From positions 718 to 64,717 of the forward strand of contig CANSAP010000010.1 of the NCBI GenBank assembly GCA_947644715.1: a DNA stretch of 64,000 nt, in the 5' to 3' direction. The notes beneath the pieces were generated by a model that was not told the DNA's origin, did not search any database, and saw nothing but the letters and a program-made list of their open reading frames with translations. The DNA is from an uncultured Bacteroidales bacterium. Lineage in GTDB: Bacteria > Bacteroidota > Bacteroidia > Bacteroidales > Muribaculaceae. Below, in pieces: positions 1,258 through 36,638 of this stretch (within the stretch, counting starts at the first letter, position 1; the number at the start of each line of letters is the position of its first letter). The translations under genes were made by a program, and so were the position numbers.

Positions 1258-1269
1258 ATATAGAAAAGA

Positions 1270-2022
1270 GTGTTTGATTTTCTTCACATACATAAGGTGA
1301 GACGTTTGCCGGAATTATTCTGGCAAACAGACCTGCACAGTCATGTCTGTCCGGGCATTGACGATGGCAGCCCTAACGCGGAGCGCTCTGTGCAGCTCGT
1401 GGCCGGGATGCATGAACTCGGTTTCCGGCGCATGATTGTGACACCTCATGTCACTGACGAAGTCTTTCCGAACACTCCTGAAATAATAGCGGAGTCTTAC
1501 ACAAGACTTGTGGAGAGTTGCCGTCAGGCCGGGGTGGAGATGAAGTTCAACTATTCGGCGGAATACCGCATTGATGAACTGCTGTTCCACTTCCTGCGCA
1601 CCGGGCAGGTGCGCCCCCTTCCGGGAGGCTACCTGCTGGTGGAGAATTCCTGGATGCAGGAGCCGGCCAACCTGGATGCTTTCCTCTTCGAGCTGCGGAG
1701 CAACTACGGGTATATGCCCGTGCTTGCCCATCCCGAGCGTTACCAGTATTACCAGCGGCATCGCGAGCGCTATCGCCTCTTGCGCGAGCAGGGAATCATG
1801 TTTCAGATAAATCTGCTCTCCTTGGCCGGACATTATGACAAGGCCTGCAAGAACACGGCCGAGTGGCTGCTCGAAAACAAGATGGTGGAGTTCATCGGCA
1901 GCGACATGCACCGTCCCAGTCATCTTGAGTCAATTCGTAACTATCTGATGTCGAAGGATTACAGACGCTTGGAAGCCGTGGCTCCGCTAATACTCAATGA
2001 CACATTGGTGCAGGACACGTAA
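1270..2022 (+). CDS. PHP-family protein-tyrosine phosphatase, CpsB/YwqE-like (capsule-associated)
   Basis: DLHSHVCPGIDDGSPN...TPHV...AHPERY...GSDMH metal-ligand pattern typical of CpsB/YwqE. Start is GTG at 1270. Confidence 0.75.
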   Translation: MFDFLHIHKVRRLPELFWQTDLHSHVCPGIDDGSPNAERSVQLVAGMHELGFRRMIVTPHVTDEVFPNTPEIIAESYTRLVESCRQAGVEMKFNYSAEYRIDELLFHFLRTGQVRPLPGGYLLVENSWMQEPANLDAFLFELRSNYGYMPVLAHPERYQYYQRHRERYRLLREQGIMFQINLLSLAGHYDKACKNTAEWLLENKMVEFIGSDMHRPSHLESIRNYLMSKDYRRLEAVAPLILNDTLVQDT

Positions 2023-2183
2023 CGCCTGTACATCTCCCACACTCCTGACCGGGGCATCTGCCGATTTATTGGCGGATGCCCCGGTTCAATTATCGTTAGA
2101 CCCGCTCCACATCATAGGTGAAACCGATTTCAGAAATCGTAAAAATCCTCGGACGCCATGCCGGCTTGCCGTTGCAAACGATG

Positions 2184-2191
2184 TAATTTTG
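2184..2191 (+). promoter_or_regulatory. Bacteroidetes-type -7 promoter box TAATTTTG
   Basis: Matches the TAnnTTTG consensus. Lies upstream of the 19-nt palindromic leader motif and the ThrE-like operon. Confidence 0.5.
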
Positions 2192-2359
2192 CGGAGTGAT
2201 TTTTAGACTCAGAAGTCAAGATGACTTCACACTCTTAACTATTAATGATTATGATGAATCCTATGGTTATATGGTATCTCCTTGTGAGTGCCGTCTTGAT
2301 TGCGTCGCTTTGCCGGCTGATATGTTATTTGAAAGGGCAACATCGCTTGCCTCATATGT

Positions 2360-3199
2360 TTGGACGTTACAGAGAGAAGGAGATTTGCTATGTGCCGGGC
2401 GACAAAGACACTGATGACCTCGATGCAGACTGAGCCGGCGGAGGTTGAAGATTCGATGGCGCTCGCCGGTCGCTTCCTGACTGACTACACGGCGAGTCTT
2501 TGGGGCTGTGGCGCAACATGCGTGCGCGTTGAGAAGAATGTGCGTCGCATAGCCGGCAGCTACGGCTATCGGTCAGAGATAACGATTCTTCCCGGGCATC
2601 TCTCAATAGTGCTCAGCAGAGAGGGGGAGGAGCCTCGACTCTTTACGCAGATTATTCATCCCAAAAGCATTGACTTCACTATGAATGCCGAGCTGAGCGC
2701 CCTGAGCTGGAATATCAGTGACAACCGTGTGCCGATAGCGCAGGCGCGACGTGAGTTCAATCGCATTGTTGAGCCGCATCGCCATGGAGATATGCGCATC
2801 GCGCTGCTGGCCTCGATGGCTAATGCCTCCTTCTGCCGCTTGTTCGGAGGTGATGCCGGGGCTATGGGTGTGGTGTTTGCCGCAACTTTGGTCGGGATGT
2901 TTTTCAAGCACATTCTGATGGGCGCTCGTGTGGATAACAGAGTGGTCTTCTTTCTGTGCGCCATGCTTTCGGCAATGCTTTGCGCCGGCGCCACACTCTT
3001 CAACATTAGTGCTACGCCGGAAATAGCGCAGGCCACATGCGTGCTCTATCTCATTCCCGGCGTGCCATACATCAATGCCGCGGGCGACTTCATAGCCCGC
3101 CACTATCTGTGTGCGGCCAGTCGTCTGGCTGATGCTGCGGTGCTGACCGCAGCGCTCTCCGCCGGACTCTATCTCGGACTCTATTTAGAGCGGATTTAA
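2360..3199 (+). CDS. Threonine/serine exporter family protein, ThrE/YjjP-like (DUF1212-type)
   Basis: Multi-pass membrane protein, paired with the DUF3815-type partner immediately downstream. Start is uncertain: TTG at 2360, ATG at 2390 or ATG at 2414. Confidence 0.7.
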   Translation: MDVTERRRFAMCRATKTLMTSMQTEPAEVEDSMALAGRFLTDYTASLWGCGATCVRVEKNVRRIAGSYGYRSEITILPGHLSIVLSREGEEPRLFTQIIHPKSIDFTMNAELSALSWNISDNRVPIAQARREFNRIVEPHRHGDMRIALLASMANASFCRLFGGDAGAMGVVFAATLVGMFFKHILMGARVDNRVVFFLCAMLSAMLCAGATLFNISATPEIAQATCVLYLIPGVPYINAAGDFIARHYLCAASRLADAAVLTAALSAGLYLGLYLERI

Positions 3200-3210
3200 T
3201 AATTAATGCG

Positions 3211-3714
3211 ATGTTACTCAACGAAATAATCAGTCTGTCAGCCCTGGGAGAGGATGCGCTTTTTGCCGCCATGGCCGCCATAGGGTTTGCCTGCATAAGC
3301 CACACTCCGCGCCGCACGGCACTCATCTGCGGACTGGCGGGCGCAGCAGCTCATGCCTTCAGAAGCCTGCTGATGGCTCCCGGGGTGTGTGACATGAATA
3401 TCATTCCGGCCGGCACGATTGCCGCTTTCCTCGCCGGGGTCATTGCCGTGTTGCTGTCACCCTTGGTGAAGGTGCCGGCAGAGGCCTGCCTCTTTCCCGC
3501 TCTGCTTCCGATGATTCCCGGCATGTATGCATATAAAGCCGTAGCCGGACTGGCCGGATGTCTGACCTGCGCCTCGGAGGGTGCGGCGGCTCATCAGATG
3601 TATCTCTTTTTCAGCAATGCACTGACCTGCACGGCGGTAGTAATAGGGATGGTGCTGGGGGCCAATCTGCCGATATTCATGCTTAAAAAGATTTCTTTTC
3701 AGGCCACCCGATGA
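3211..3714 (+). CDS. Threonine/serine exporter family protein, YjjB-like (DUF3815-type)
   Basis: 167-aa hydrophobic protein directly downstream of the DUF1212-type gene, which is the usual two-gene arrangement. Confidence 0.65.
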   Translation: MLLNEIISLSALGEDALFAAMAAIGFACISHTPRRTALICGLAGAAAHAFRSLLMAPGVCDMNIIPAGTIAAFLAGVIAVLLSPLVKVPAEACLFPALLPMIPGMYAYKAVAGLAGCLTCASEGAAAHQMYLFFSNALTCTAVVIGMVLGANLPIFMLKKISFQATR

Positions 3715-3722
3715 AGTTTTTG

Positions 3723-3730
3723 TAATTTTG
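3723..3730 (+). promoter_or_regulatory. -7 promoter box TAATTTTG
   Basis: TAnnTTTG match ending 19 nt upstream of the LysR ATG at 3750. Confidence 0.55.
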
Positions 3731-3749
3731 CAACCTCAATATTTCGATA

Positions 3750-4655
3750 ATGGAACTACGCCAGATAAAATACTTTGTCAAAGCAGCCGAATTGCTGAGC
3801 TTTTCCGAGGCTGCCAGGGTGCTGAACATAGCTCAAAGCACCCTGTCGCAGCAGGTGCGGGTGCTTGAGGATGAGCTTGGTATTCAGCTTTTTGACCGCC
3901 ATTCCCATGTCATCTCTCTGACCGAAGCCGGGCGCGAGCTGCTCCCCTTGGCTTTGCGCACACTGCATGAGGCCGACAGCTGTCTGGCTCGAATGCAGGA
4001 TTTGGGAAAACTGGCCACCGGCACTCTCAATATCGGTGTCACCTATTCCTTCTCGCCGATTCTGACCGAAACCCTCCTGGAGTTCGCAAAGCGTTATCCC
4101 GGGGTACGGCTCAATGTTCTCTACAAACCGATGGCGGAGCTGATGGAGCTTCTGAGTGCACGCTCGCTTGACTTTGTGCTTGCCTTTCGCCCCTCGGAGC
4201 GGATTGAGGGGATAGAGTCACACGTGCTTTTTGACAACCATCTGGGGGTTATCGTGCGCGACTCGCATCCGCTGGCTGCCAAGCAGAGCGTGGGTGCCGA
4301 CGACCTGCGCCGCTATAACCTGATTTTGCCTTCGAAAGGGTTGCAGGCCCGCAATGCTTTTGACCGATGTGTGGCGCAGGCCGGCCTGGCGTTCGACATC
4401 CACATCGAGCTTAATGAGGTGAATATTCTGCTGGAGCTAATCAGGCACAGCAATATGATTACCGTGCTCTCCGAGGCCACCATCTATAACCGCACCGGCA
4501 TCAAGGCCATACCTCTGGAGCTGCCCGGGAGCGAGATGGAGGGTTGTGTGCACATGCTCCGCAACTGCTATCGGAAGCACTCGGCTTTGGAGTTTATCCG
4601 CCTGCTTCGTGACTCTGATGCAGTGCGGGCGAGAGCCCGGAGCTGGCTCGATTAA
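3750..4655 (+). CDS. LysR-family transcriptional regulator
   Basis: N-terminal wHTH (MELRQIKYFVKAAELLSFSEAARVLNIAQSTLSQQVRVLEDELGIQLFDR) followed by a LysR substrate-binding domain. Confidence 0.9.
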   Translation: MELRQIKYFVKAAELLSFSEAARVLNIAQSTLSQQVRVLEDELGIQLFDRHSHVISLTEAGRELLPLALRTLHEADSCLARMQDLGKLATGTLNIGVTYSFSPILTETLLEFAKRYPGVRLNVLYKPMAELMELLSARSLDFVLAFRPSERIEGIESHVLFDNHLGVIVRDSHPLAAKQSVGADDLRRYNLILPSKGLQARNAFDRCVAQAGLAFDIHIELNEVNILLELIRHSNMITVLSEATIYNRTGIKAIPLELPGSEMEGCVHMLRNCYRKHSALEFIRLLRDSDAVRARARSWLD

Positions 4656-6670
4656 TCGCCGTTGGAGAGCATTTTAAGAAACTCCTCTTCGGAGAGCATC
4701 GGTATGCCGAGCTTGGCGCACTTCTCAGCCTTGGCCGGACCCATGTTCTCACCCGCCAGCACGAAGCTGGTCTTCTTGGAGATGGAACCGACGTTCTTCC
4801 CCCCTTCGCGCTCAATGATTTCCTTATATTCATCGCGGCTATGGCGGGAGAATGTGCCTGAGATTACAATCTGTTTTCCCTCGAGCGCAGTGCCTTTGGG
4901 TTGCATCTGCTCCTCGCTCAGACTCATCTGCACTCCGGCCTCGCGGAGGGCATCGATGGTTGAGATGTTGGCCGGCTCGCGCAGGAAGTCGAATATGCAG
5001 CGGGCAATTATTGGTCCGACGTCAGGAATACTTGTCAGTTCTTCTTCACTCATTTCCAGTAATCGGTCCATGCTCTGCACGGTGCGGGCAAGCCGCTTGG
5101 CCGTGGTCTCACCCACGTTGGGAATCGAGAGAGCATACACCACTCTCTCAAACGGCACTGACTTCGAGGCCTCGATGCCACGGATTATGCGCTGCGCGCT
5201 GCGCTCTCCCAGTCCTTCGAGATGCGAGAGGTCAGCAGTCGTGAGCTTATATAGGTCGGCAATGCAGGTGACGATGCCATGCCGATAGAGCTGCTCGACG
5301 GTCTCTTCGCCTATGCCGTCGATGTCCATCATGCGGCGGGCGCAGAAGTGCTCGATGCGACCCGTGATTTGCGGAGGACAACCGTAGCGGTTCGGACACC
5401 ACCAGGCGGCTTCACCCTCGATGCGGGTGAGGGGTGTGCCGCAGGAGGGACAGTGCGAAACAAACTCCACCGGGCGAGAACCCTCAGCGCGTGCTTTGAG
5501 GTCGACGCCGGTGATTTTAGGAATAATCTCGCCCCCTTTCTCCACGTAGAGCCTGTCATGCTCATGGATGTCGAGCTGCCGGATGATATCCTCATTATGA
5601 AGCGATGCGCGCTTGACGATGGTGCCGGAGAGGAGCACCGGTTCAAGATTGGCCACGGGGGTCACGATGCCCATTCGCCCGGTCTCGAAGCTGACGAAGC
5701 GCAGCGGAGTGCAGGCCCGTTCGGGGTTGAATTTATAGGCAATAGCCCAGCGAGGAGACTTGGCTGTGTAGCCCAGGTTGAGCTGCTGGCGCAGAGAGTT
5801 GACTTTGAACACGAGTCCGTCGGTGGCCACCGGCAGTTTGCGTCGTTCCTCATCCCAATAATTGATGTAGGCATTCACCTGCTCCAGGCTGTCCATGAGT
5901 TTCATGGCCGAAGATACTTTGAAACCCCAGCTGCGGGCCGCCTCCATATTCTGATAATGGTCAGGGAAGGGGAGGTCTTCTCCCAGCAGATAGTAGAACC
6001 GGGCATCCAGGCGGCGTGCGGCCACGATGCGCGGGTCGAGCGTCTTCAGTGTGCCGGATGCTGCGTTGCGCGGGTTGGCGAAGAGGGGCTCCTCATTCTC
6101 GAAGCGCTCGCGGTTCAGCCGTTCGAAGCTCTCCCAGGGCATGAGAATCTCGCCACGAATCTCGAAGCGTTCGGGCCAGTTGCCCGGCTGCAGCCGGAGC
6201 GGAATGGAACGGATAGTCATAACGTTGCGGGTCACGTCGTCCCCTTGGGTTCCGTCCCCTCTGGTTACGGCGCGCACCAATTGACCCCGCTCGTAGGTCA
6301 GGGAGATGGAGGTGCCGTCGAATTTCATTTCTCCCACCACTTGCCAAGGCTCTCCACCCAGACCGTCGCTCACACGGCGGAACCAGTCGTCCACCTCCTC
6401 AATGCTGTAAGTGTTGGCAAGCGACATCATCGGGCGTTCATGCACCACATGCTCAAACCCTGAAGAGAGGTCGGAGCCGACACGCTGAGTGGGGGAGAGG
6501 GGATCATGCAGTTCCGGATGCTCACGCTCCAGCTCTTCAAGCTCACGCATCATCAGGTCAAATTCCTTGTCGGAAATCTCGGGTGCGTTCAGCACATAGT
6601 AATTATGGTTGTGGCGGTGAAGCTCCTCGCGCAATTGCTGCACACGCCCGGCGGGGGTCAATTCAGTCAT
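4652..6670 (-). CDS. ligA: NAD-dependent DNA ligase
   Basis: 672 aa with the KxDG adenylation motif (EMKFDG), a Zn-finger (CPSCGTPL...CPN), HhH repeats and a C-terminal BRCT. Confidence 0.97.
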   Translation of the reverse strand: MTELTPAGRVQQLREELHRHNHNYYVLNAPEISDKEFDLMMRELEELEREHPELHDPLSPTQRVGSDLSSGFEHVVHERPMMSLANTYSIEEVDDWFRRVSDGLGGEPWQVVGEMKFDGTSISLTYERGQLVRAVTRGDGTQGDDVTRNVMTIRSIPLRLQPGNWPERFEIRGEILMPWESFERLNRERFENEEPLFANPRNAASGTLKTLDPRIVAARRLDARFYYLLGEDLPFPDHYQNMEAARSWGFKVSSAMKLMDSLEQVNAYINYWDEERRKLPVATDGLVFKVNSLRQQLNLGYTAKSPRWAIAYKFNPERACTPLRFVSFETGRMGIVTPVANLEPVLLSGTIVKRASLHNEDIIRQLDIHEHDRLYVEKGGEIIPKITGVDLKARAEGSRPVEFVSHCPSCGTPLTRIEGEAAWWCPNRYGCPPQITGRIEHFCARRMMDIDGIGEETVEQLYRHGIVTCIADLYKLTTADLSHLEGLGERSAQRIIRGIEASKSVPFERVVYALSIPNVGETTAKRLARTVQSMDRLLEMSEEELTSIPDVGPIIARCIFDFLREPANISTIDALREAGVQMSLSEEQMQPKGTALEGKQIVISGTFSRHSRDEYKEIIEREGGKNVGSISKKTSFVLAGENMGPAKAEKCAKLGIPMLSEEEFLKMLSNGD

Positions 6671-6691
6671 GAAGTTAAAAGTATTTCACTG

Positions 6692-6699
6692 CAAAATTA
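6692..6699 (-). promoter_or_regulatory. -7 promoter box (TAATTTTG on the minus strand) for ligA
   Basis: Plus-strand caaaatta, about 21 nt upstream of the ligA ATG at 6670. Confidence 0.5.
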
Positions 6700-6761
6700 A
6701 GAAAAAACGGGTGAGCTGTAAAATAATCAGGCTAAAATGTGAAAATGCAGAAAATTATTCT

Positions 6762-6769
6762 TACCTTTG
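6762..6769 (+). promoter_or_regulatory. -7 promoter box TACCTTTG for the amylase gene
   Basis: TAnnTTTG match about 90 nt upstream of the ATG at 6859. Confidence 0.55.
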
Positions 6770-6858
6770 CGCGTAATTTGGCCTGCGCGTAAAAGCGCAT
6801 CTATCCATAGATTAGACTCAAAAGACAGTTAACTTAATAAATCTTACATTTTATCTAC

Positions 6859-9594
6859 ATGTTGAAGAAACTCTTTCTCTCGCTCGCCTTGGCAGGTGCA
6901 GCGCAAGGAGTCTTTGCAGCAGGATCTTACAATTTCCCGGACAATATCCAGGATTGCAACATCCTCCATTGCTTTGACTGGAAATTCAGCGACATCAAGG
7001 CCGAACTTCCCAATATTGCAGAAGCCGGTTTCGGCGCAATTCAGGTGAGCCCCGTGCAGGGCAACTGCGCTACGGGCGCCGAGTGGTTCTATGCCTATAT
7101 GCCCTATGACTTCGCTTTCAAGGCTAACGGCAACGGCTCACGTGCGGAATTGCAGGCTCTCTGCCAGGAAGCAGAGAAGTATGGAATCAAGATTGTTGTG
7201 GACGTTGTGGCCAACCATGTTAATCAGGCTGCCGGTTATCACGACACTTGGTGGGACTCCAATAACCGTGTGCGTTGGAACGGCGGCGTGGACTACAATA
7301 GCCGCTACTCAATCACTCATAACCAGCTTGGCGAATATGGCGACGTGAACTCTGAGGATGCTCAGGTGCAGGCGCGTGCCAAAGCCTTTATCGAAGACCT
7401 CAAGAGCCTTGGTGTCAAGGGTATACGTTGGGATGCCGCCAAGCATATCGGCCTCCCCTCCGAGAGCTGCGGGTTCTGGTCAGCCGTGACCTCCGTGCCC
7501 GGCATGTGGCACTACGGCGAGATTCTCGACGGCCCCGGCGGCGACAAGTATGGCCTGCTCAAGGAATATACCAACTATATTTCAGTGACCGACTCCGAAT
7601 ACTCTGAATGGGCTAAGAATCAGGTGCTTAACGGTCAGGTGCCCACCGGTGGCGGTTCTTGGACTGCCAATCAGGTTCCCTCAACCGGCATCGTGTACTG
7701 GGGTGAGAGCCATGACACCTACTCAAACGACGGTCAATATGGCTGGAACTCCTCTCAGACCTCTCAGGACAAGATTGACCGCATCTGGGCCATCGGCGCC
7801 TGCCGCAACGGCGAAAGCTCTCTCTACTTCTCTCGCCCGGCAGCCACTACCCGCACCTCAATCAAGATGGGTCAGAAAGGCTCCACTCACTTCACCAGCA
7901 AGGAGATAGCAGCCGTTAACCACCTGCGCAACGCAATGGTTGGCACAGCTGACTGGTACTCCCACAGCGACGGTGTGGCCTGCATCACCCGCCAGGGTGG
8001 CGGTGCCTGCATCGTGGTCGGTGCCGGCGGCAGCCGTCAGGTGAGTGTGACCAACGGCGGCAGCTATGTGCCCGCAGGTGAATATATCGACGAAGTGAGC
8101 GGCAACAAGTTCACTGTGACTTCATCCACCATCTCCGGCCAGGTTGGCTCCACCGGTATCGCCGTAATCTATGGCGAAGTGAAGCATGACCCCGCCGTAA
8201 ACTTCACTCCCAACGGCGGCAACTTCCGTGAGACCATCACCGTGACTGCCACCACTCAGTATGCCACCTCTGCCTGGTATAAGGTCGGTTCCGGCTCACA
8301 GGTAAGCTTTACCGGCACCAAGACCTTCACCATCGGCGAAGGCATGGAAGTGGGCGACGCAGTGACTGTGACCTGGAGCGCTACCGGCGACGAAGGCACC
8401 AAGACCGGCTCCGTAACCTTCACAAAGGTTGACAAGCCTGTGGCTGAACCCAACACTATCTACTACGATAACTCTCTGACCAACTGGGCTACTCCCTATA
8501 TCCACTATTGGGATGCAACGACATCAAGCACATGGCCCGGCGAGCCGATGGAAAAAGTCGAGGGCAACATCTGGAAAAAGACTGTACCTGAAACCACTAC
8601 CGGCTGCTTGTTCAACGCAGGCGATGGCGATGCCACCAAGACCGGCGACATGGTAGTCGTTATGGGTCACCTTTACAATAAGAACGGCGACCAGGGTGAG
8701 TATGGCGACGGTGGCGGCCAAGGCAGCGGCGGCGACGATGATGAGACCGTTACCGTGCCTGATGATGGCAAGATGCGTATCTTCTACGACAACTCCGTAT
8801 CCCGTTGGACCACTCCTCACATTCACTACTGGGGTGGCACCTCAGAAAGCACCTGGCCCGGTGTGGCTATGCAGCCGTTCAATGGCGACGTTTGGGTAGC
8901 CATCGTGGCTGACGGCACTACCGGCTGTCTGTTCAATGCCGGTGACGGCGATGCCACCAAGACCGGCGACATGGTTGCAACCAACAACCACAAGTATAAT
9001 CAGGGTGGCGACCAGGGTCAGTATGCAACCATCGGTGGCGGTGGTGGCGACGATGATGTAGAGATGCCTGCCGCTCTCTATATCCTCGGCACTATCCGCG
9101 GCATCACTCCCGCCTGGAACACCGCTCAGTCTCTGCCCATGACCAAGGATGGCAACACCTTCACCATCAGCAACGTGACCATCGACAAGGCTGAAGAGGG
9201 CACCCTCGGCTACTTCACATTCGTAACAGTGCTTGGCGCTGACTGGGATGCTGTCAACATGTCTGACCGCTACGGCTCTGAGGCCGGCCTGACCGACCCC
9301 GACGGCAACACTCTCGTTACTCCCGGCATGGACGCAACAATCGTTCGCTATCCCGTGAACGTAAGCGCAATGGGCGCCACCTCCTGGAGCATTGACCCCG
9401 GCACTTACAACATTGTGGCTGACTTCAAGACCATGAAGCTCACCATCAACAGTGTGACCGGTGTGGAAATGGTAATCGACATGCAAGCCGAACCCCTGTA
9501 CTTCGACATGCAGGGTCGCCGCGTGATGAACCCCGAAAAGGGCATCTATATCGTGCGTCGCGGTAACACCGTTACCAAGGAATATGTGCGCTAA
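6859..9594 (+). CDS. Secreted GH13 alpha-amylase with two tandem CBM25/26-like starch-binding modules and a T9SS C-terminal sorting domain
   Basis: Signal peptide is present. GH13 motifs are VDVVANH, GIRWDAAKH and ESHD. Two ~80-aa repeats (IYYDNS..W..PYIHYW..STWPG..GCLFNAGDGDATKTGDM) are separated by Gly/Asp linkers. The C-terminus (...FDMQGRRV..PEKGIYIVRRG...) looks like a T9SS CTD. Confidence 0.9.
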   Translation: MLKKLFLSLALAGAAQGVFAAGSYNFPDNIQDCNILHCFDWKFSDIKAELPNIAEAGFGAIQVSPVQGNCATGAEWFYAYMPYDFAFKANGNGSRAELQALCQEAEKYGIKIVVDVVANHVNQAAGYHDTWWDSNNRVRWNGGVDYNSRYSITHNQLGEYGDVNSEDAQVQARAKAFIEDLKSLGVKGIRWDAAKHIGLPSESCGFWSAVTSVPGMWHYGEILDGPGGDKYGLLKEYTNYISVTDSEYSEWAKNQVLNGQVPTGGGSWTANQVPSTGIVYWGESHDTYSNDGQYGWNSSQTSQDKIDRIWAIGACRNGESSLYFSRPAATTRTSIKMGQKGSTHFTSKEIAAVNHLRNAMVGTADWYSHSDGVACITRQGGGACIVVGAGGSRQVSVTNGGSYVPAGEYIDEVSGNKFTVTSSTISGQVGSTGIAVIYGEVKHDPAVNFTPNGGNFRETITVTATTQYATSAWYKVGSGSQVSFTGTKTFTIGEGMEVGDAVTVTWSATGDEGTKTGSVTFTKVDKPVAEPNTIYYDNSLTNWATPYIHYWDATTSSTWPGEPMEKVEGNIWKKTVPETTTGCLFNAGDGDATKTGDMVVVMGHLYNKNGDQGEYGDGGGQGSGGDDDETVTVPDDGKMRIFYDNSVSRWTTPHIHYWGGTSESTWPGVAMQPFNGDVWVAIVADGTTGCLFNAGDGDATKTGDMVATNNHKYNQGGDQGQYATIGGGGGDDDVEMPAALYILGTIRGITPAWNTAQSLPMTKDGNTFTISNVTIDKAEEGTLGYFTFVTVLGADWDAVNMSDRYGSEAGLTDPDGNTLVTPGMDATIVRYPVNVSAMGATSWSIDPGTYNIVADFKTMKLTINSVTGVEMVIDMQAEPLYFDMQGRRVMNPEKGIYIVRRGNTVTKEYVR

Positions 9595-16988: not shown

Positions 16989-17201
16989 TATATAGATTTG
17001 ATAGGTTCTTTCAGGGCAACAAAGATAATAAAACCCTGCGAGAAAATCAAGCACAAATTTCATGTTGCATAACATTGTTTTGGTGATAGTTTTCCGATTT
17101 GGTTCGGTTTGGCTTTGATTACTAATGTGTTAGGAAAATTGTCGTGTCTGAAAGTTTTCCAAAAGAGAAAATTTCGGTTTGGGAGGCTTGGAATTTTTGC
17201 T

Positions 17202-17209
17202 TACCTTTG
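17202..17209 (+). promoter_or_regulatory. -7 promoter box TACCTTTG for nrdJ
   Basis: The TAnnTTTG match lies inside the long ORF extension, which supports the ATG at 17266 as the true start. Confidence 0.55.
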
Positions 17210-17265
17210 CATTGAATTTTCCGTACACCCGAACAGGCAATTTATCTCTAACTCCCTATATAACA

Positions 17266-19818
17266 ATGGCAACTGACCAACTGCGACCATACACCTACGA
17301 TGAGGTCTATCAGGCCTCGCTGGAATATTTCAAGGGCGACGAACTGGCCGCCCGTGTATGGGCCAACAAATATGCGCTGAAGGATAGCTTCGGCAACATT
17401 TATGAGCGCACCCCCGATGACATGCACCACCGCCTGGCAAAAGAATTTGCCCGCATCGAGGCCAAGTATCCCAACCCTCTTTCCGAACAGGAACTGTTTG
17501 ATCTGATGAAAGGCTTCCGTTACATCGTGCCCCAGGGTAGCCCCATGGCCGGCATAGGCAACGGTTTCCAGGTGGGAAGCCTCTCCAACTGCTTCGTAAT
17601 CGGCCTCGATGGTCGCCCCGACTCTTACGGCGGTATCATCAAGATTGATGAGGAGCAGGTGCAGCTCATGAAGCGCCGCGGCGGAGTGGGTCATGACCTT
17701 AGCCATATTCGTCCCAAGGGAAGCCCCGTCAAGAACTCCGCATTGACCTCCACCGGTTTGGTCCCCTTCATGGAGCGATACTCCAACAGCACCCGCGAGG
17801 TGGCGCAGGATGGACGCCGCGGAGCGCTGATGCTCTCAGTCAGCATCAAGCATCCCGATGCCGAAAGCTTCATCGATGCAAAGATGACCGAGGGAAAAGT
17901 GACCGGAGCCAATGTCTCCGTGCGCATTGACGACGACTTCATGCGCGCCGCCTCCGAAGGAACTGAATACACTCAGAGCTACCCGGTGGATTCCGACACA
18001 CCCCTCTATCCGCAAAAGCAAATCGACGCCGCTTCCCTGTGGAAGAAAATCGTGCATAACGCCTGGCGCAGCGCCGAGCCTGGCATCCTCTTCTGGGACA
18101 CCATCACCCGCGAAAGCCTGCCTGACTGCTATGCCGACCTCGGCTTCCGCACCATCTCCACCAATCCCTGCGGCGAGATTCCCCTCTGTCCCTACGACTC
18201 CTGCCGCCTCATTGCCATCAATCTTTACAGCTACGTGGAGAACCCCTTCACTCCCCACGCCCGATTTAATTTCGACCTCTTCAGCGAACATGTGGCCAAG
18301 GGGCAGCGCATGATGGACGACATCATCGACCTGGAGATGGAGAAAATCGATCAGATTATTGCCAAAATAAAGAGCGACCCCGAGACGCAAGAGGTGAAGC
18401 ACACCGAACTGCACCTCTGGGAGAAAATACGCGAAAAAACCCTCAAAGGTCGTCGCACAGGCTTCGGCACCACCGGCGAGGGTGACATGATAGCCGCACT
18501 CGGACTGCGCTATGGCACTCCTGAAGCCACGGAATTCTCCGTGAGCGTGCATCGTGCCCTTGCGCTCGCTTACTACCGTGCCTCCACTGCCATGGCCGAG
18601 GAGCGCGGCGCCTTCGAGATTTTCGATGCCGAGCGCGAAAAAAACAATCCCTTCATGCAGCGCCTGGCCGAAGCCGACCCTGAACTCGTGGAAAAGATGA
18701 AGCGTGTGGGTCGACGCAATATCGCCTGCCTCACAATAGCCCCCACCGGCTCAACCTCACTGCTGACGCAGACCACCTCCGGAATCGAACCGGTCTTCCT
18801 CCCCGTCTACAAGCGTCGCCGCAAGGTTAATCCCGGAGACCCGGATGTGCACATCGACTTCGTGGATGAAGTGGGCGACGCCTTCGAGGAATATATCGTC
18901 TACCACCACAAGTTCCTCGAATGGATGCGCATCAACGGCCTGGAAGTCAAAAAGAATATGACGGCCGAGGAAATTGAAGCCCTCGTCGAGAAATCGCCAT
19001 ACCATAAGGCCACGAGCAACGACGTCGACTGGATGGAGAAAGTACGTATGCAGGGTGCTGTCCAGAAATGGGTGGACCACAGCATCTCCGTGACCATCAA
19101 CCTCCCTAACGATGTGACCGAAGACCTCGTAGGTCAGCTCTACATGCAGGCATGGCAGGCCGGCTGCAAAGGCTGCACAGTTTATCGCGACGGCTCCCGC
19201 AACAACGTGCTCGAGAGCGTAAAAAAGAAAGAACCCAAGGCCGACCTCATAGCACATCCCTCCAACACAGTGCTCAAACGCCCCATGGAGCTTGAGGCCG
19301 ACGTCGTGCGTTTCCAGAATAACAAAGAGAAATGGATTGCCTTCGTGGGACTCGCTGAGAACGGAATGCCCTACGAAATTTTCACCGGTCTTGCTGACGA
19401 TGAAGAGGGCATCTTCTGCCCCAAGAGCGTAAGCAAAGGCAAGATAATCAAAGCCATAGATGGCTCCGGAAGAAAGCGCTACGACTTCCAGTTCGTCAAC
19501 AAGCGCGGCTACAAAACCACCATCGAAGGCTTGAGCGACAAATTCAACCCCGAATTCTGGAACTATGCCAAACTGATTTCCGGCGTATTGCGCTACGGAA
19601 TGCCCATCGACCAGGTGCTGAAACTCGTAGACGGACTGCAACTTGACTCCGACAACATCAACACCTGGAAGAACGGCGTGGTGAGAGCCCTGAAAAAATA
19701 CGTTCCCGACGGCTCCAAAGCCAGCGGCCAAAAATGTCCGCATTGCGGCCAGGAAACCCTGATATATCAGGAGGGCTGCCTGATCTGCACCTCCTGCGGT
19801 AACTCCAAGTGCGGTTAA
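17266..19818 (+). CDS. nrdJ: Class II (adenosylcobalamin-dependent) ribonucleotide reductase
   Basis: ~850 aa. Has SNCFV, NPCGEIPL and TIAPTGS motifs and the C-terminal Cys-rich tail CPHCG...CLICTSCGNSKCG typical of monomeric/dimeric NrdJ. Confidence 0.9.
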   Translation: MATDQLRPYTYDEVYQASLEYFKGDELAARVWANKYALKDSFGNIYERTPDDMHHRLAKEFARIEAKYPNPLSEQELFDLMKGFRYIVPQGSPMAGIGNGFQVGSLSNCFVIGLDGRPDSYGGIIKIDEEQVQLMKRRGGVGHDLSHIRPKGSPVKNSALTSTGLVPFMERYSNSTREVAQDGRRGALMLSVSIKHPDAESFIDAKMTEGKVTGANVSVRIDDDFMRAASEGTEYTQSYPVDSDTPLYPQKQIDAASLWKKIVHNAWRSAEPGILFWDTITRESLPDCYADLGFRTISTNPCGEIPLCPYDSCRLIAINLYSYVENPFTPHARFNFDLFSEHVAKGQRMMDDIIDLEMEKIDQIIAKIKSDPETQEVKHTELHLWEKIREKTLKGRRTGFGTTGEGDMIAALGLRYGTPEATEFSVSVHRALALAYYRASTAMAEERGAFEIFDAEREKNNPFMQRLAEADPELVEKMKRVGRRNIACLTIAPTGSTSLLTQTTSGIEPVFLPVYKRRRKVNPGDPDVHIDFVDEVGDAFEEYIVYHHKFLEWMRINGLEVKKNMTAEEIEALVEKSPYHKATSNDVDWMEKVRMQGAVQKWVDHSISVTINLPNDVTEDLVGQLYMQAWQAGCKGCTVYRDGSRNNVLESVKKKEPKADLIAHPSNTVLKRPMELEADVVRFQNNKEKWIAFVGLAENGMPYEIFTGLADDEEGIFCPKSVSKGKIIKAIDGSGRKRYDFQFVNKRGYKTTIEGLSDKFNPEFWNYAKLISGVLRYGMPIDQVLKLVDGLQLDSDNINTWKNGVVRALKKYVPDGSKASGQKCPHCGQETLIYQEGCLICTSCGNSKCG

Positions 19819-19837
19819 TCCCGGACCTCTCCAACAG

Positions 19838-19883
19838 TAACGGCTCGCAGCGTCAAACCGCGCTGCGAGCCGTTACCGTTTTT
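19838..19883 (+). terminator. Rho-independent terminator of nrdJ
   Basis: 15-bp stem taacggctcgcagcg / cgctgcgagccgtta followed by ccgttttt. Confidence 0.85.
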
Positions 19884-19890
19884 AGAAGCC

Positions 19891-20489
19891 TTTTTAGAAT
19901 GCCATGTAGAGGCTTATGCAGGATGGTTAGACGAGAGTGCAGAGGCAAAGCGAAAAGCTGTAACCCAAGCTGTCGAAGACCGCACTCATAAGGAAACCGG
20001 CGTAATCATTCCTGCAACGATGAAAGTTGATGACAGGCAGGTGTATATCATTGCCCGCAATGTTGTGATGCATGAAGATGTCAGCGGTGTTGATGTCCGT
20101 AATTCCGATTCAAGTGTAGTCGTGATGGATGCCGAGAGCGGTAAGCTGGAATTCGCCTCGCCTGACTGAATGTAGAGTATGACCCGCGCAAGATTCGCGA
20201 TGTTGAGTTTGATTTGTCTATCGTAGAGAGTACGGCAACCCCGGCATACCGAGCAATCAGGAATGAGATGCTGATGCAGTTGTGGCAGGCGCAGGCTATC
20301 AGCGTAGAGCAATTGCTTGAGCATGGCGACTTCCCGTTTGCCGACAAGCTGCTGCAAAGCATTCAGAGCCAGCGGGAGCAGATGGAGCAGGGACAAATGC
20401 CTGATGGAGTCTCCCCCGAGCTTGCTCAACAGACACAACAGGGCGTGAACATGCAAGCTGTACAAAATGCGCAGAGAATGTTGAAATAA
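19891..20489 (+). pseudogene. Phage morphogenesis gene fragment (portal-like C-terminus), 5'-truncated and frameshifted
   Basis: An open frame starts straight after the nrdJ terminator with no start context. That frame ends at TGA 20167-20169. The reading then continues in another frame from 20166 (LNVEYDPRKIRDVEFDLSIVESTATPAYRAIRNEML...). The portal assignment is tentative. Confidence 0.35.
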
Positions 20490-20532
20490 TTAGCAGCTGG
20501 TGTATTCTGAAATCGAATACGTCAGCTGCTAA
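20490..20532. terminator. Long hairpin between the convergent portal-like fragment and the toxin gene
   Basis: ttagcagctg / cagctgctaa outer stem plus gtattc / gaatac inner stem. The flanking T-runs are only weak. Confidence 0.5.
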
Positions 20533-20561
20533 AAATAAAGCCTTATTGGGGGGAATAAGAA

Positions 20562-20981
20562 TCAATAGAAGAATTGTTTCTTCTCCTTTGGCGAAAAAAG
20601 TTTACTTGCGCGACAGGCTTCAAGTATAGTAGTCAAATCTTCATTGGTCAATTGTCCGACAATGGAGGTTTGTCCAATCTGCATTGTATTTACCAAATCT
20701 GACACAGAACGCGTAAGCAACTCATTGGCGCCAAGGAAAGAATCATATCGCAGGAAATCATAATCTTTTTTGCGAAGTTGATATTGCATTGCAAACTGTT
20801 CAGGCTTGGCCTGCAAAATCGGATGAATACGCGAATTTATGAAAAAGAACCCCGCTATTCTATCCTCATAGACACCTATTACTGCAAAAAATTTGGCGTG
20901 ATTGATATCTTCGAAACTTTCAGAGAGCAGGACTGAACCACGTCTGATGCCTTGTTGTAGCAATTGTATTGGCAAGTCCAT
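20562..20981 (-). CDS. Uncharacterised 139-aa protein, candidate PanA-associated toxin (PanT)
   Basis: Its ATG overlaps the PanA stop in TAATG. It is soluble with no TM helix. The layout K-FFAVIGV...GFFFINSRI...FLRYDSFLGANELL...IVGQLTNEDLTTILE is reminiscent of MazF/PemK-type toxins. That similarity is my inference, not a search result. Confidence 0.55.
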   Translation of the reverse strand: MDLPIQLLQQGIRRGSVLLSESFEDINHAKFFAVIGVYEDRIAGFFFINSRIHPILQAKPEQFAMQYQLRKKDYDFLRYDSFLGANELLTRSVSDLVNTMQIGQTSIVGQLTNEDLTTILEACRASKLFSPKEKKQFFY

Positions 20982-21529
20982 TATAAGAAAGCGGCTTGAA
21001 GTCTCTGACAATCCGCAATGTATTCCACGTAGGCCTCCTCATCACCAATCTCACGTAGAATATCCTTCACTGACATCTCACGGTCGCGCCGTGTATTGTT
21101 CCAAGCAAGACCATGCGAGTATTCTGTTAATTCTGCGAAATTCTTATTCCTGCATATATCTATTGCATATGACAGGCATTCAACATCAGTTTCTGATAAT
21201 TCGTCCATATCGGGAGCCACGAGAGAGCGCACGATATATCTGTTATCAAACACAATAGATTTCTTGAGGGGCTCTATTTCTTCGCTCGCAGAAAAGAAGC
21301 TATCTCCTCGCAGGGCCTTGAGTATATCATCGACACATGAGGGGACCGGTCCAAATTGCATGGCGATATATGTATCGCCGGTTATACTGCGACCATACAG
21401 AGACAAATGACGCTGGTCTGCAAAATATAAAATCTTGCAAAGCTTGTGCATGTCTGTTTTCCCTCCCAATTGTTGTAGAGAGAATAGAAGTGAGTTTACT
21501 GCCTTATCGTATTTGAATAATTTATTCAT
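20981..21529 (-). CDS. Panacea (DUF4065, SocA-like) domain antitoxin
   Basis: Signature HKLCKILYFADQRHLSLYGRSITGDTYIAMQFGPVP plus C-terminal ...EYSHGLAWNNT. Start taken at MNKLFKYD (21529). An upstream ATG at 21556 is also possible. Confidence 0.8.
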   Translation of the reverse strand: MNKLFKYDKAVNSLLFSLQQLGGKTDMHKLCKILYFADQRHLSLYGRSITGDTYIAMQFGPVPSCVDDILKALRGDSFFSASEEIEPLKKSIVFDNRYIVRSLVAPDMDELSETDVECLSYAIDICRNKNFAELTEYSHGLAWNNTRRDREMSVKDILREIGDEEAYVEYIADCQRLQAAFL

Positions 21530-21548
21530 GATATCAAAAATTGAGCAG

Positions 21549-21803
21549 CTAAACATTGCTAAAACATTCCCAACCGTGTGACCTCAAATCAGCGACCAAA
21601 GTTTTGTGAGACAGGCCAAAGTCAAGAAACTCAGTTTCCGCAATATGGAATGATTCCTTTGCTTCCTCATCAGTATAGCCTGAGCCGCATAAGTCCAACG
21701 CAGGGCTATATGCGATAACGGTATTATCTTAAGTAAAGATATACACGTCTAATTTTATGGACATTCCGGTCGAGGTCTGTCTTATTTCGTTAACTGCAGC
21801 CAT
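21549..21803 (-). pseudogene. HicB/UPF0150-like antitoxin-fold gene inactivated by an in-frame TAA
   Basis: Minus-strand frame reads MAAVNEIRQTSTGMSIKLDVYIFT*DNTVIAYSPALDLCGSGYTDEEAKESFHIAETEFL... The stop codon is at 21729-21731. The x-AYSPxLxxCGSGxTxEEA core is typical of HicB-like N-domains. Confidence 0.5.
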
Positions 21804-21868
21804 ATCAGAGGTTATTTGAAATTTAGTTGGTTGCAATGCGGTATCATTGATGATGCTGCTGTCGAATG

Positions 21869-21876
21869 CAAAGTTA
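21869..21876 (-). promoter_or_regulatory. -7 promoter box (TAACTTTG on the minus strand) driving the HicB-like/PanA/PanT unit
   Basis: Plus-strand caaagtta, 65 nt upstream of the ATG at 21803. Confidence 0.5.
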
Positions 21877-21928
21877 CAAAAAAGTAACTAAAGCACCAAA
21901 GTAGTAACCGCAAATTATAGTTAAAAGT

Positions 21929-22468
21929 TTAGAGAACAGCTTCGGAAACGGAGCTGTTTCTTTTTGGTGGCCTAAGTTGTTTCCTTGGAATAATCCGTGG
22001 AATCTCCATATCGTGAAAGCAGATGTGCAGACCGATAGCTCGGGTCATGAGCATGTCGTCATGCTTGCCCACTATAGCTCCATATGCACCGTTGGGTTTA
22101 CGTTCATAGACGAGGTATTCGTCAAGGCAACGGCGGTCACGCTCTGTATATAAGTGCTCACGGATGACTTTCACCAATGAGGAAATAATCATGGGTTTGG
22201 TGGCCACATTGGTGTGGAATCCATATTTACGTGGAATTCCTTGTAATATCTCATCCTCTGACTGGCGACGTGCATAGAGATTAGGATAAATAGACGAAAT
22301 CTGATTGAGGATGTATTGCGATTGGTCGCCACCTTCAACCTGACGCTCCCGGTCGTGAGTCTCTAATGTATTGCTTTTTTGGTGCAATTGGTGCAGAAAT
22401 TTTTCCTGCACCAATTTTGTACCATTAATTATTACTGCTTTAATATGGAAACGATATACCTTGCTGAA
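21929..22468 (-). pseudogene. Phage terminase large subunit, C-terminal (nuclease-domain) fragment only
   Basis: GFHTNVATKPMIISSLVKVIRE...LDEYLVYERKPNGAYGAIVGKHDDMLMTRAIGLHI is the conserved TerL C-terminus. The frame opens just after a stop at 22469-22471, with no ATPase domain and no ATG context. Confidence 0.7.
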
Positions 22469-22560
22469 TTATTATAACAGTCTTAAAAGTTTGTGATACA
22501 GTGCGTTATATCGAATTTATATCAGGGGTATATCGTGGCTATATTGCAGGGGAATTGCCG

Positions 22561-24135
22561 TTAGAACTCGCTCGCGAAATGGAAGCGGATGGCGGGGAAG
22601 TCGCTTTGAGCCATCTGGAGGACGTAGCCGCTGTCGGCCAGGAAGACGTCGCGGCCATCTTTGTCTGTGGCCATGAACTGGTGTTTGCGGCGCTTGAAGG
22701 CTTCCAGCTCTTTCTCGTCGTCGCTCTCAATCCAGCAGGCTTTGTAGAGGCTTATCGGCTCCCAACGGCACTGCGCGCCGTATTCGTGCAGCAGGCGGTA
22801 TTGGATTACCTCAAACTGCAGCTGGCCAACGGTGCCGATAATTTTGCGGCCATTGAATTGGTTGGTGAACATCTGTGCCACACCCTCATCCATGAGCTGG
22901 CGGATTCCCTTGTCAAGCTGCTTGGCTTTCATGGGGTCGGCGTTCTCGATGTATTTGAACATCTCGGGGCTGAAGGAGGGGAGTCCCTTGAAGTGCAGTT
23001 GCTCACCCTGAGTCAGCGTGTCGCCAATCTTGAAGTTGCCGTTGTCAGGGATGCCGACGATGTCGCCGGGGAAAGCCTCGTCCACAATATTTTTCTTCTG
23101 AGCCATGAATGCGGTGGGGGCAGCAAAGCGGAGTTGCTTGCCCAGGCGCATGTGGCTGTAAGGGGCGTTGCGCTCGAATTTGCCGCTGCATACCTTCACA
23201 AAGGCTATGCAGGAGCGGTGATTGGGATCCATGTTGGCATGTATCTTGAAGACGAATCCGGTGAACTGGTCCTCTCCAGGTTTCACTTCGCGCTCCTGAG
23301 CCATGATGGGTTGCGGACAGGGAGCAATCTCCACGAAGCAGTCGAGCAGCTCCTTGACGCCGAATGTGTTCAATGCCGAGCCGAAGAAGACGGGTGCCAC
23401 TTCGCCGCGCAGGTAAGCCTCGCGGTCAAATTCCGGATAAACGCCCTCGATGAGTTCGAGGTCTTCGCGGAGCTTGGCGGCATCGGTCTCACCCACGAGT
23501 TCATCCACTTGCGGGTCGGCTACATCGGCTATCTCCACGCGCTCGGAGATGGTCTGCTTCGAGGGGGTGAAGAGATCGAGCCCCTGCTCATAGATGTTAT
23601 ACACACCCTTGAACTTTGCACCGATATTGATAGGCCAGGAGAGGGGGCGAACACTGATTTTCAGTTCTTGCTCCAGCTCATCGAGGATGTCGAAGGGATC
23701 GCGACCCTCGCGGTCAAGCTTGTTTACGAAAATGATTACCGGAGTGTTGCGCATGCGGCATACCTCCATGAGGCGGCGGGTCTGGGTCTCTACACCCTTG
23801 GCCACGTCCACAACAATGATTACCGAGTCCACGGCCGTCAGCGTTCGGAACGTGTCTTCAGCGAAGTCCTGGTGGCCGGGGGTGTCAAGGATATTGATTT
23901 TATAGTCACCGTAGTTGAAACCCATTACGGAGGTAGCCACCGAGATGCCGCGCTGTTTCTCGATTTCCATCCAGTCTGAGGTAGCGGTCTTTTTGATTTT
24001 ATTGCTTTTCACGGCACCGGCCACATGAATGGCACCGCCGAAGAGCAGCAGTTTTTCAGTGAGAGTAGTCTTACCGGCGTCAGGGTGAGAGATGATGGCG
24101 AACGTGCGCCGGCGGTTTATTTCGTCTTGTAACAT
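22561..24135 (-). CDS. prfC: Peptide chain release factor 3
   Basis: [35 protein letters not shown] GTPase motifs. 524 aa. Confidence 0.97.
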
Positions 24136-25699: not shown

Positions 25700-25707
25700 T
25701 AACTTTG
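25700..25707 (+). promoter_or_regulatory. -7 promoter box TAACTTTG for ncRNA-like element A
   Basis: Same box and same context (attgNtaactttgcg) as at 45718. Confidence 0.6.
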
Positions 25708-36630: not shown

Positions 36631-36638
36631 TAACTTTG
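36631..36638 (+). promoter_or_regulatory. -7 promoter box TAACTTTG
   Basis: TAnnTTTG match 49 nt upstream of the ATG at 36687. Confidence 0.55.

Follow-up and report, generated by a model that had tools for sequence, protein, structure and literature searches.

The 64,000-nucleotide stretch analyzed here (hereafter, the window) comes from the genome of an uncultured Bacteroidales bacterium of the Muribaculaceae (contig CANSAP010000010.1, positions 718 to 64,717). At positions 20562-21529, on the minus strand, it carries two adjacent genes that probably form a real and functional PanAT module, i.e., a type II toxin-antitoxin (TA) pair in which the antitoxin belongs to the Panacea (DUF4065) family. 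The second gene encodes a protein that is predicted to be a very divergent toxin of the MazF/PemK type (CcdB/MazF fold). The core of the locus comprises the following features:

20984-21529, minus strand, with the stop codon at 20981-20983: panA, encoding a 182-aa Panacea/DUF4065 antitoxin.
20565-20981, minus strand, with the stop codon at 20562-20564: candidate panT, encoding a soluble 139-aa protein with a predicted MazF/PemK-like SH3-type barrel and an extra C-terminal helix.
20979-20983, minus strand: TAATG junction, in which one base is common to the panA stop codon (TAA, 20983-20981) and the panT start codon (ATG, 20981-20979).

Because the plus strand at 20979-20983 reads c-a-t-t-a, the junction between the two genes is TAATG on the coding strand. 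An identical one-base overlap of stop and start codons is present in 32 of the 40 intact homologous panA-panT pairs and is therefore no accident of a single genome. A first-pass annotation of the window, made from the sequence alone, had proposed translational coupling through this overlap; the coordinates given there are exact and the overlap is read directly from the sequence. The same annotation had recognized the 182-aa product as a Panacea protein, an assignment that is borne out by the match to the Pfam family SocA_Panacea (PF13274; E = 1.2e-20, 74.9 bits with a cut-off of 25.7) over residues 30-143, in addition to a match to PHROG 1281 (E = 5e-19). The PanA of the window is of the standalone type, without an N-terminal accessory domain: conservation of its N-terminus across 48 homologs starts at M1, and the Panacea core (residues 30-143) is followed by a conserved acidic C-terminal tail (residues 144-182) with a charge of -3.2, the isoelectric point (pI) of the whole protein being 5.0. 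In standalone PanA proteins, neutralization can stem from the Panacea core itself or from the C-terminal helices (Ernits et al. 2023, PMC10440598). The 139-aa partner had been left without a family name in the first pass and, indeed, searches of Pfam, NCBIfam and PADLOC gave no match to it at E <= 1; the single match to PHROGs (E = 0.08) is at the level of chance.

The partner belongs to a large family. A word-indexed protein search with the 139-aa sequence yielded 291 proteins at E <= 0.01; nearly all of the best 120 of these are 139 aa long, with at least 71% identity to the query, and those that have any name are called 'hypothetical protein' and come from Muribaculaceae or Candidatus Egerieousia. 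Comparison of a profile derived from 27 close homologs with 1.84 billion cluster representatives expanded the family to 477 clusters (at 50% identity) at E <= 1e-3, including 99 at E <= 1e-10, with protein lengths across the 477 clusters mostly between 125 and 160 aa. The family is found chiefly in gut Bacteroidales and their phages, from humans, mice and ruminants, and the one member with a retrieved accession is a GenBank record from a metagenome-assembled genome (MAG) rather than a RefSeq protein. In a diverse alignment of 94 full-length relatives, with a mean identity of 31%, K30 is the sole invariant residue, and G15, I48, N49, S50, F76, L77 and S81 are each conserved in at least 90% of the sequences. 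The panA and panT open reading frames (ORFs) of the window are both full length, and all invariant and near-invariant residues are present. The pI of the partner is 6.7, close to the family median of 6.3.

The linkage of this family to PanA is the strongest result of the analysis. A survey that took one genome per GTDB species produced 47 loci, nearly all of them from MAGs of Bacteroidales (Muribaculaceae, Prevotella/Segatella, Bacteroides, Barnesiella and Odoribacter), the non-Bacteroidales being two Firmicutes and one Desulfomonilaceae. A PanA homolog is encoded immediately upstream, on the same strand, in 46 of these 47 loci, and the lone exception (L056) is a bare toxin fragment. The same arrangement extends to distant relatives identified in the search of cluster representatives (22-33% identity), with a SocA_Panacea gene directly upstream in all four that were checked. 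Homologs that are not syntenic with antitoxin-like genes had been named in the first-pass annotation as an observation that would speak against its proposal; synteny in 46 of the 47 loci and in the four distant relatives disposes of this concern. The genes that flank the pair are unrelated across loci and include, among others, those for a glycosyltransferase and RadC. Because the neighbors differ from locus to locus, the conserved unit consists of exactly two genes and, as the definition of PanAT has it, does not lie within a longer (>3-gene) conserved operon. Purifying selection acts on both genes, and they diverge in step with each other: identity to the window pair is strongly correlated between PanA and the toxin (r = 0.93 over 40 loci), and, in both genes, the proportion of nonsynonymous differences (pN) is 0.08-0.25 versus a saturated proportion of synonymous differences (pS) of 0.74-0.95.

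Where the pair decays, it is mostly the partner that is lost. In six loci, the toxin gene (in the region near 3001-3420) is broken while PanA is intact: the toxin has a stop at codon 16 in L014 and an in-frame deletion of approximately residues 26-41, with the loss of K30, in L024; frameshifts are found in L046 and L048, and deletions in L054 and L055. The reverse situation, a broken PanA next to an intact partner, is found in a single locus, L053. The binomial probability of such a 6 to 1 split is about 0.03, with the toxin gene being the shorter target. This asymmetry is suggestive of the partner being the harmful one of the two proteins.

The genomic contexts of the pair are diverse. In the L001-L005 loci (approximately 1069-3655), the pair is chromosomal, in a setting that resembles a defense island, with HNH_2 and RE_HpaII restriction genes and a YafQ/ParE-like toxin; in L060 (1311-2733), also a defense island-like setting, it is found amid HEPN_Apea/ApeA_NTD1 genes. 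In another locus, from a distant relative, the surrounding genes are housekeeping genes of sugar metabolism and, in yet another context, the pair is located in a phage region, together with a DUF4411 and Peptidase_M78 pair and a P22-type portal. The association with phage and defense-island sites suggests that the module may function in the exclusion of other phages or in the stabilization of the element that carries it. The same contexts (HNH/HpaII, YafQ, DUF4411 with M78, HEPN_Apea and the phage cargo site) could, alternatively, indicate a trigger-dependent system of phage defense or superinfection exclusion, in which Panacea is the sensor and the partner is harmless unless activated, or else performs a non-toxic role, such as nucleic acid binding or regulation. 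Such a system would agree with the L053 locus, where the partner persists next to a broken PanA, and with the proposal of a primarily sensory role for the Panacea domain (Ernits et al. 2023, PMC10440598). However, preferential loss of the partner with PanA retained is the expected outcome for a partner that is harmful by itself, and the layout of the pair, in which the antitoxin gene comes first and is tightly coupled to the next gene by one base, is classical for type II modules. Moreover, this alternative overlaps with a TA module proper because the TA toxins that act in abortive infection are also toxic once freed. We consider a purely trigger-dependent pair unlikely.

The structure of the partner was predicted with AlphaFold2. 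A first model, which used the 27 close homologs (all at least 71% identical), reached a predicted local distance difference test (pLDDT) score of 68 and was replaced by a model derived from the 94 diverse relatives, with a pLDDT of 91.6, a predicted template modeling score (pTM) of 0.82 and no low-confidence segment. When the latter model was compared with the PDB using Foldseek, ranks 1-10 were all occupied by MazF endoribonucleases, from M. tuberculosis, B. subtilis, S. aureus, E. coli and D. radiodurans; the probabilities for these matches are 0.99-1.0 and the template modeling (TM) scores, normalized by the target, are 0.60-0.69, with the best matches to 6kyt_A (E = 9e-5) and 4me7_C (E = 1.9e-4). 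Among the predicted viral structures of BFVD, the top five matches are annotated as 'PemK-like protein' or 'Endoribonuclease'. The model contains the SH3-like beta-barrel followed by a C-terminal helix that identifies the MazF/PemK fold, along with a helical insert (54-63) and an additional helix at the end (131-138); the protein is about 25 residues longer than MazF. Thus, the resemblance to the MazF/PemK barrel that had been noticed by eye in the first pass is reproduced by the high-confidence model and by its closest structural neighbors, experimental and viral alike.

Sequence comparisons point, weakly, to the same relationship. The profile of the 94 relatives, compared with 177,635 distinct PDB sequences, produced five matches at E < 10, all of which are MazF or EndoA proteins (E = 0.25-0.5) and are collinear with the query over approximately 95 residues. 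In a Pfam scan of the same 94 relatives, PemK_toxin is the only family matched by more than one of them (4 of 94, best E = 0.0044). The family was also aligned, using hhalign, with a template of five MazF/Kid/ChpBK/EndoA sequences, which were validated against the PDB (E down to 6.5e-49) and by database matches at 100% identity. The alignment spans 100-104 columns with P = 0.002-0.004, although the HH-suite probability is only 8-14%; its score of 22.9 compares with 10.4 +/- 2.1 for 300 column-shuffled templates, one of which reaches 22.9. A richer MazF profile was sought by searching 5.8 billion proteins with the five MazF sequences and was abandoned because the search returned only near-identical Bacillus NdoA/EndoA proteins, without the requisite diversity. 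Individually, the sequence tests are weak, yet all of them point in one direction.

The alignments also suggest the location of a putative active site. The invariant K30 falls on Arg25 of MazF (B. subtilis numbering) in both the PDB profile alignment and the hhalign alignment; the latter additionally aligns N49 with MazF Thr48 and D80-S81 with the D-S dipeptide of MazF (residues 72-73). In the model of the partner, strand 2 begins at K30 and strand 3 ends at N49, and MazF Arg25 and Thr48 presumably hold the same strand positions. We take the catalytic arginine of MazF to be R25 in B. subtilis and R29 in E. coli, and the catalytic threonine to be T48 and T52, respectively; these residues reportedly were identified in the structure of the B. 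subtilis MazF-RNA complex. K30 and N49/S50 thus appear to occupy the positions of the catalytic Arg and Thr of MazF. The canonical Arg/Thr pair itself is absent from the partner, and the residues at the aligned sites, Lys30 (invariant) and Asn49-Ser50 (conserved in at least 90% of the relatives), are polar. Because the protein is below the Pfam threshold and lacks the Arg/Thr pair, it is better described as a MazF-fold protein that probably works like MazF than as a member of PF02452.

Substitution of Lys30 and Asn49-Ser50 for the Arg/Thr pair, together with the near-neutral pI, leaves some room for a true PanAT pair in which the MazF-fold toxin is not an RNase but a gyrase poison similar to CcdB or some other non-catalytic binder. 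CcdB belongs to the same SH3-like barrel superfamily and its structures also match the partner, with TM scores of about 0.6, although at much lower ranks, starting from rank 13 (E = 0.2) with the 94-relative model and at ranks 14-22 with the earlier model, which produced the same Foldseek order. By Foldseek E-value, MazF leads CcdB by over three orders of magnitude, all five profile matches in the PDB are MazF and none is CcdB, and the Pfam matches of the relatives go to PemK_toxin. Furthermore, the conserved polar residues are located exactly at the sites aligned with the MazF catalytic residues, which is not expected of a gyrase binder. CcdB contacts GyrA via a C-terminal Trp-Gly-Ile motif. 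This GyrA-binding end is missing in the partner, the C-terminus of which is KKQFFY. Given the structural rank, the lack of a profile match and this C-terminus, the identification of the partner as a CcdB gyrase poison was rejected, and a non-RNase toxin in general seems quite improbable.

The surroundings of the pair in the window suggest that it was brought in by a phage. The relevant features are:

17179-19818: ribonucleotide reductase gene, host flank.
19833-19880: hairpin with 20-nt arms right after the reductase gene, a likely terminator.
20172-20483, plus strand: 3' remnant of a portal gene, corresponding to residues 551-654 (104 codons) of a 655-aa P22-type portal.
20490-20532: probable bidirectional terminator, a hairpin (18-nt arms, 7-nt loop) that separates panT from the portal remnant, the two having convergent 3' ends.
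21552-21803, minus strand: pseudogene with a frame of 84 codons, interrupted by a TAA at codon 25 and located between panA and the promoter motif.
21869-21900, minus strand: Bacteroidota-type promoter-like motif, with the -33 element TTTG at 21897-21900 and the -7 element TAACTTTG at 21869-21876.
21932-22378, minus strand: 3' remnant of a terminase-like gene, corresponding to residues 550-698 (149 codons) of a 698-aa protein.
21934-21959: terminator-like hairpin that closes the terminase-like remnant.
22561-24135, minus strand: prfC, host flank.

The portal remnant was identified by a tblastn search with the portal protein of the phage in locus L006 (77% identity, E = 3e-47) and also matches PHROG 156 (portal, E = 5.6e-7); likewise, the terminase-like remnant is 77% identical to the 698-aa protein of L006 (tblastn, E = 6e-71) and matches PHROG 24361 (terminase, E = 1.7e-9). 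The gene order, namely, the 3' end of the terminase gene, cargo, panA, panT and the convergent 3' end of the portal gene, is the same in the window and in the L006 phage. With this order preserved and two 3' stumps left, the window can be seen to carry an internal scrap of a prophage, approximately 2.3 kb in size (20172-22378), of which panA-panT is the only intact part. The GC content is 39-44% across the island that contains the pair versus 55-58% in the flanking host genes. Six metagenomic contigs, originating from several samples, share the 3-kb stretch at 100% identity. An Rfam scan of positions 19800-22600 detected chance-level matches only, of the miRNA type, on the hairpins.

In the intact phage contexts of L006-L010 (approximately 2500-4120, and also 351-2447, 5532-7499 and 7579 onward), a pair of genes encoding a DUF4411 protein and an ImmA-like Peptidase_M78 protein is found beside PanAT in the slot between the terminase-like and portal genes, so that two TA-like or defense-like pairs are immediate neighbors. 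Beyond the portal gene lies an ORF of 6657 aa. On the host side of the window, a 492-aa ORF (22501-23979, plus strand) that is antisense to prfC is almost certainly a shadow ORF of this GC-rich gene.

Expression of the pair in the window could be compromised by the lack of a proximal promoter. In most of the other loci, a TAnnTTTG motif is located 12-85 nt upstream of panA. In the window, the only such site within 420 nt upstream of panA is TAACTTTG, which precedes the panA ATG by 347 nt, with TTTG 20 nt further upstream, and is located just downstream of the hairpin at 21934-21959. The claim of the first-pass annotation that the unit has its own upstream promoter stands inasmuch as the motif is present at 21869-21876, as a putative promoter recognized only by consensus match. 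Given the distance of 347 nt, transcription from this site would have to cross a pseudogene leader. Across the window, TAnnTTTG occurs 36 times compared to the 19 +/- 4 sites expected from shuffled sequences (e.g., at 21869-21876, 25700-25707 and 36631-36638), an enrichment that is expected of a Bacteroidota host; a scan for sigma-70 promoters, using a model that is ill-suited to Bacteroidota, did no better than shuffled sequences (8 found versus 5.7 expected). The pseudogene at 21552-21803 had been described in the first pass as a dead HicB-like gene. The frame is indeed broken, but the HicB label is unsupported because the pseudogene has no Pfam match and no PDB match, and none of the other fetched loci contains a counterpart of it next to PanA. 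A 92-aa ORF upstream of PanA in L001-L005 was considered as an intact version of this pseudogene and rejected, as it encodes an unrelated hydrophobic protein.

Taken at face value, the absence of any TAnnTTTG motif within 340 nt of panA, the pseudogene next to it and the reduction of both flanking phage genes to 3' stumps could mean that this genome harbors the module as a silent relic amid phage debris, unexpressed and heading to decay. Against this, the pair has not decayed whereas its surroundings have: neither ORF is truncated, and no invariant or near-invariant residue has been lost. In addition, a promoter-like -33/-7 pair is present 347 nt upstream, behind the terminator-like hairpin, and the family is under strong purifying selection. 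A silent relic is, accordingly, among the least probable interpretations of the locus.

Systems of this general kind have been described previously. Kurata et al. (2022, PNAS, PMC8832971) defined PanAT and delineated 88 clusters of candidate toxins, with PemK among the recognized domains. Two of the toxins validated in that work, from P. moraviensis (cluster T6) and B. ruminantium, had no match in CDD and were found to be EndoA/PemK/MazF-like by HHpred; these two pairs are toxic, neutralized by the antitoxin, complex-forming and translation-inhibiting (PMC8832971). The pair in the window resembles such cryptic MazF-like PanATs in that a standalone PanA comes first and is followed by an overlapping or abutting gene for a small, soluble toxin without a CDD/Pfam match. 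It differs from them in its distribution, which is mainly in uncultured gut Bacteroidales and phages. No retrieved member of the family has the start or the end of the P. moraviensis PanT. Furthermore, cluster T5 shows HHpred probabilities above 99% to MazF (PMC8832971), whereas the window family produces only marginal profile scores, and the Bacteroidales-containing clusters T1, T3 and T19 either are without HHpred labels or bear labels of the membrane type (PMC8832971). The first-pass description of the partner as a new PanT toxin is, therefore, correct with respect to the sequence family but not to the kind: because PanA with cryptic MazF-like toxins was validated by Kurata et al. (2022), novelty is limited to the sequence family. 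The pair thus represents what is probably a new sequence family within a known kind, although one of the 88 PanT clusters may correspond to it.

The similarities to and differences from the classical systems follow the same pattern. The partner shares with MazF, PemK, Kid and EndoA (PF02452) the predicted fold, the order of secondary structure elements including the C-terminal helix, and a collinear alignment of approximately 100 residues; with the MazF/PemK modules, the pair shares the bicistronic organization with the antitoxin first and conserved polar residues at the catalytic sites. In contrast to MazEF and PemIK, the antitoxin is Panacea and not a MazE of the AbrB or ribbon-helix-helix type; in contrast to MazF, the toxin has Lys30 and Asn49-Ser50 in place of Arg/Thr, the extra helix 131-138 and the insert 54-63, and remains below the Pfam threshold. 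With SocAB of Caulobacter, the founding DUF4065 system, the pair has in common the Panacea domain of the antitoxin. In that system, the toxin SocB binds the clamp, and SocA serves as the ClpXP adaptor for it. Identity with the SocAB type VI system was rejected, given that PanA scores 20.8 bits against the SocA equivalog NF047745 (cut-off of 190) and that the partner has no NCBIfam match.

Combining these observations, we interpret the locus as a two-gene PanAT type II TA module of phage origin, with a MazF-fold toxin that is probably an endoribonuclease, and assign to this interpretation a probability of roughly 0.68. PanA and the toxin would be produced from one mRNA, with translation coupled through the TAATG overlap, and PanA would bind the toxin directly and hold it inactive. 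By analogy with MazE, the conserved acidic tail of PanA (residues 144-182) may fill the RNA groove of the toxin. Upon loss or inactivation of PanA, the MazF-fold toxin, likely a sequence-specific endoribonuclease, would cleave RNA and arrest translation. In Bacteroidales phages, the module would travel as a moron inserted between the genes for the terminase and the portal, and it would also settle in chromosomal defense islands; its survival in a deleted prophage agrees with addiction-like retention or with some benefit that has been preserved, such as phage exclusion. MazF/PemK is among the commonest folds in the TA network (Ernits et al. 2023, PMC10440598).

Several observations weigh against this interpretation. 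The support for MazF from sequence is weak when taken alone (profile E = 0.25-0.5 in the PDB, HHalign probability of 8-14%), and the window partner itself is below every Pfam and NCBIfam threshold. With Lys and Asn-Ser replacing the Arg/Thr pair, the chemistry of the partner could differ or could have been lost, and its near-neutral pI of 6.7 is unlike that of a typical RNA binder. The asymmetry of decay is small (7 events), with MAG assembly errors as a possible contributor. Finally, the proximal promoter of the other loci is missing in the window, which makes the expression of panA-panT there uncertain. Some of the same features could, more speculatively, mark a distinct offshoot of the MazF fold, with a Lys and Asn/Ser chemistry and an added helix, that has acquired another target (a specific tRNA or rRNA) or acts through a non-catalytic block, and that serves superinfection exclusion or abortive infection at a moron hotspot between the terminase and portal genes. 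This scenario appears rather doubtful at present; if it is true, the persistence of the pair as the one intact piece of a deleted prophage would exemplify, in nature, TA-driven retention.

Altogether, the PanAT reading of the locus introduces no new principle, as experiments have already validated the combination of PanA with cryptic MazF-like toxins, and would not surprise specialists. It does, however, provide a predicted fold and a likely role for a large family (477 clusters) of proteins that so far have been annotated as 'hypothetical'. The list of Panacea partners, which was built on cultured RefSeq genomes, is thereby extended to a family that is found almost entirely in uncultured MAGs. 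As a natural variant of MazF with Lys and Asn-Ser at the putative catalytic sites, this family could be useful for exploring how much drift the active site of MazF allows.

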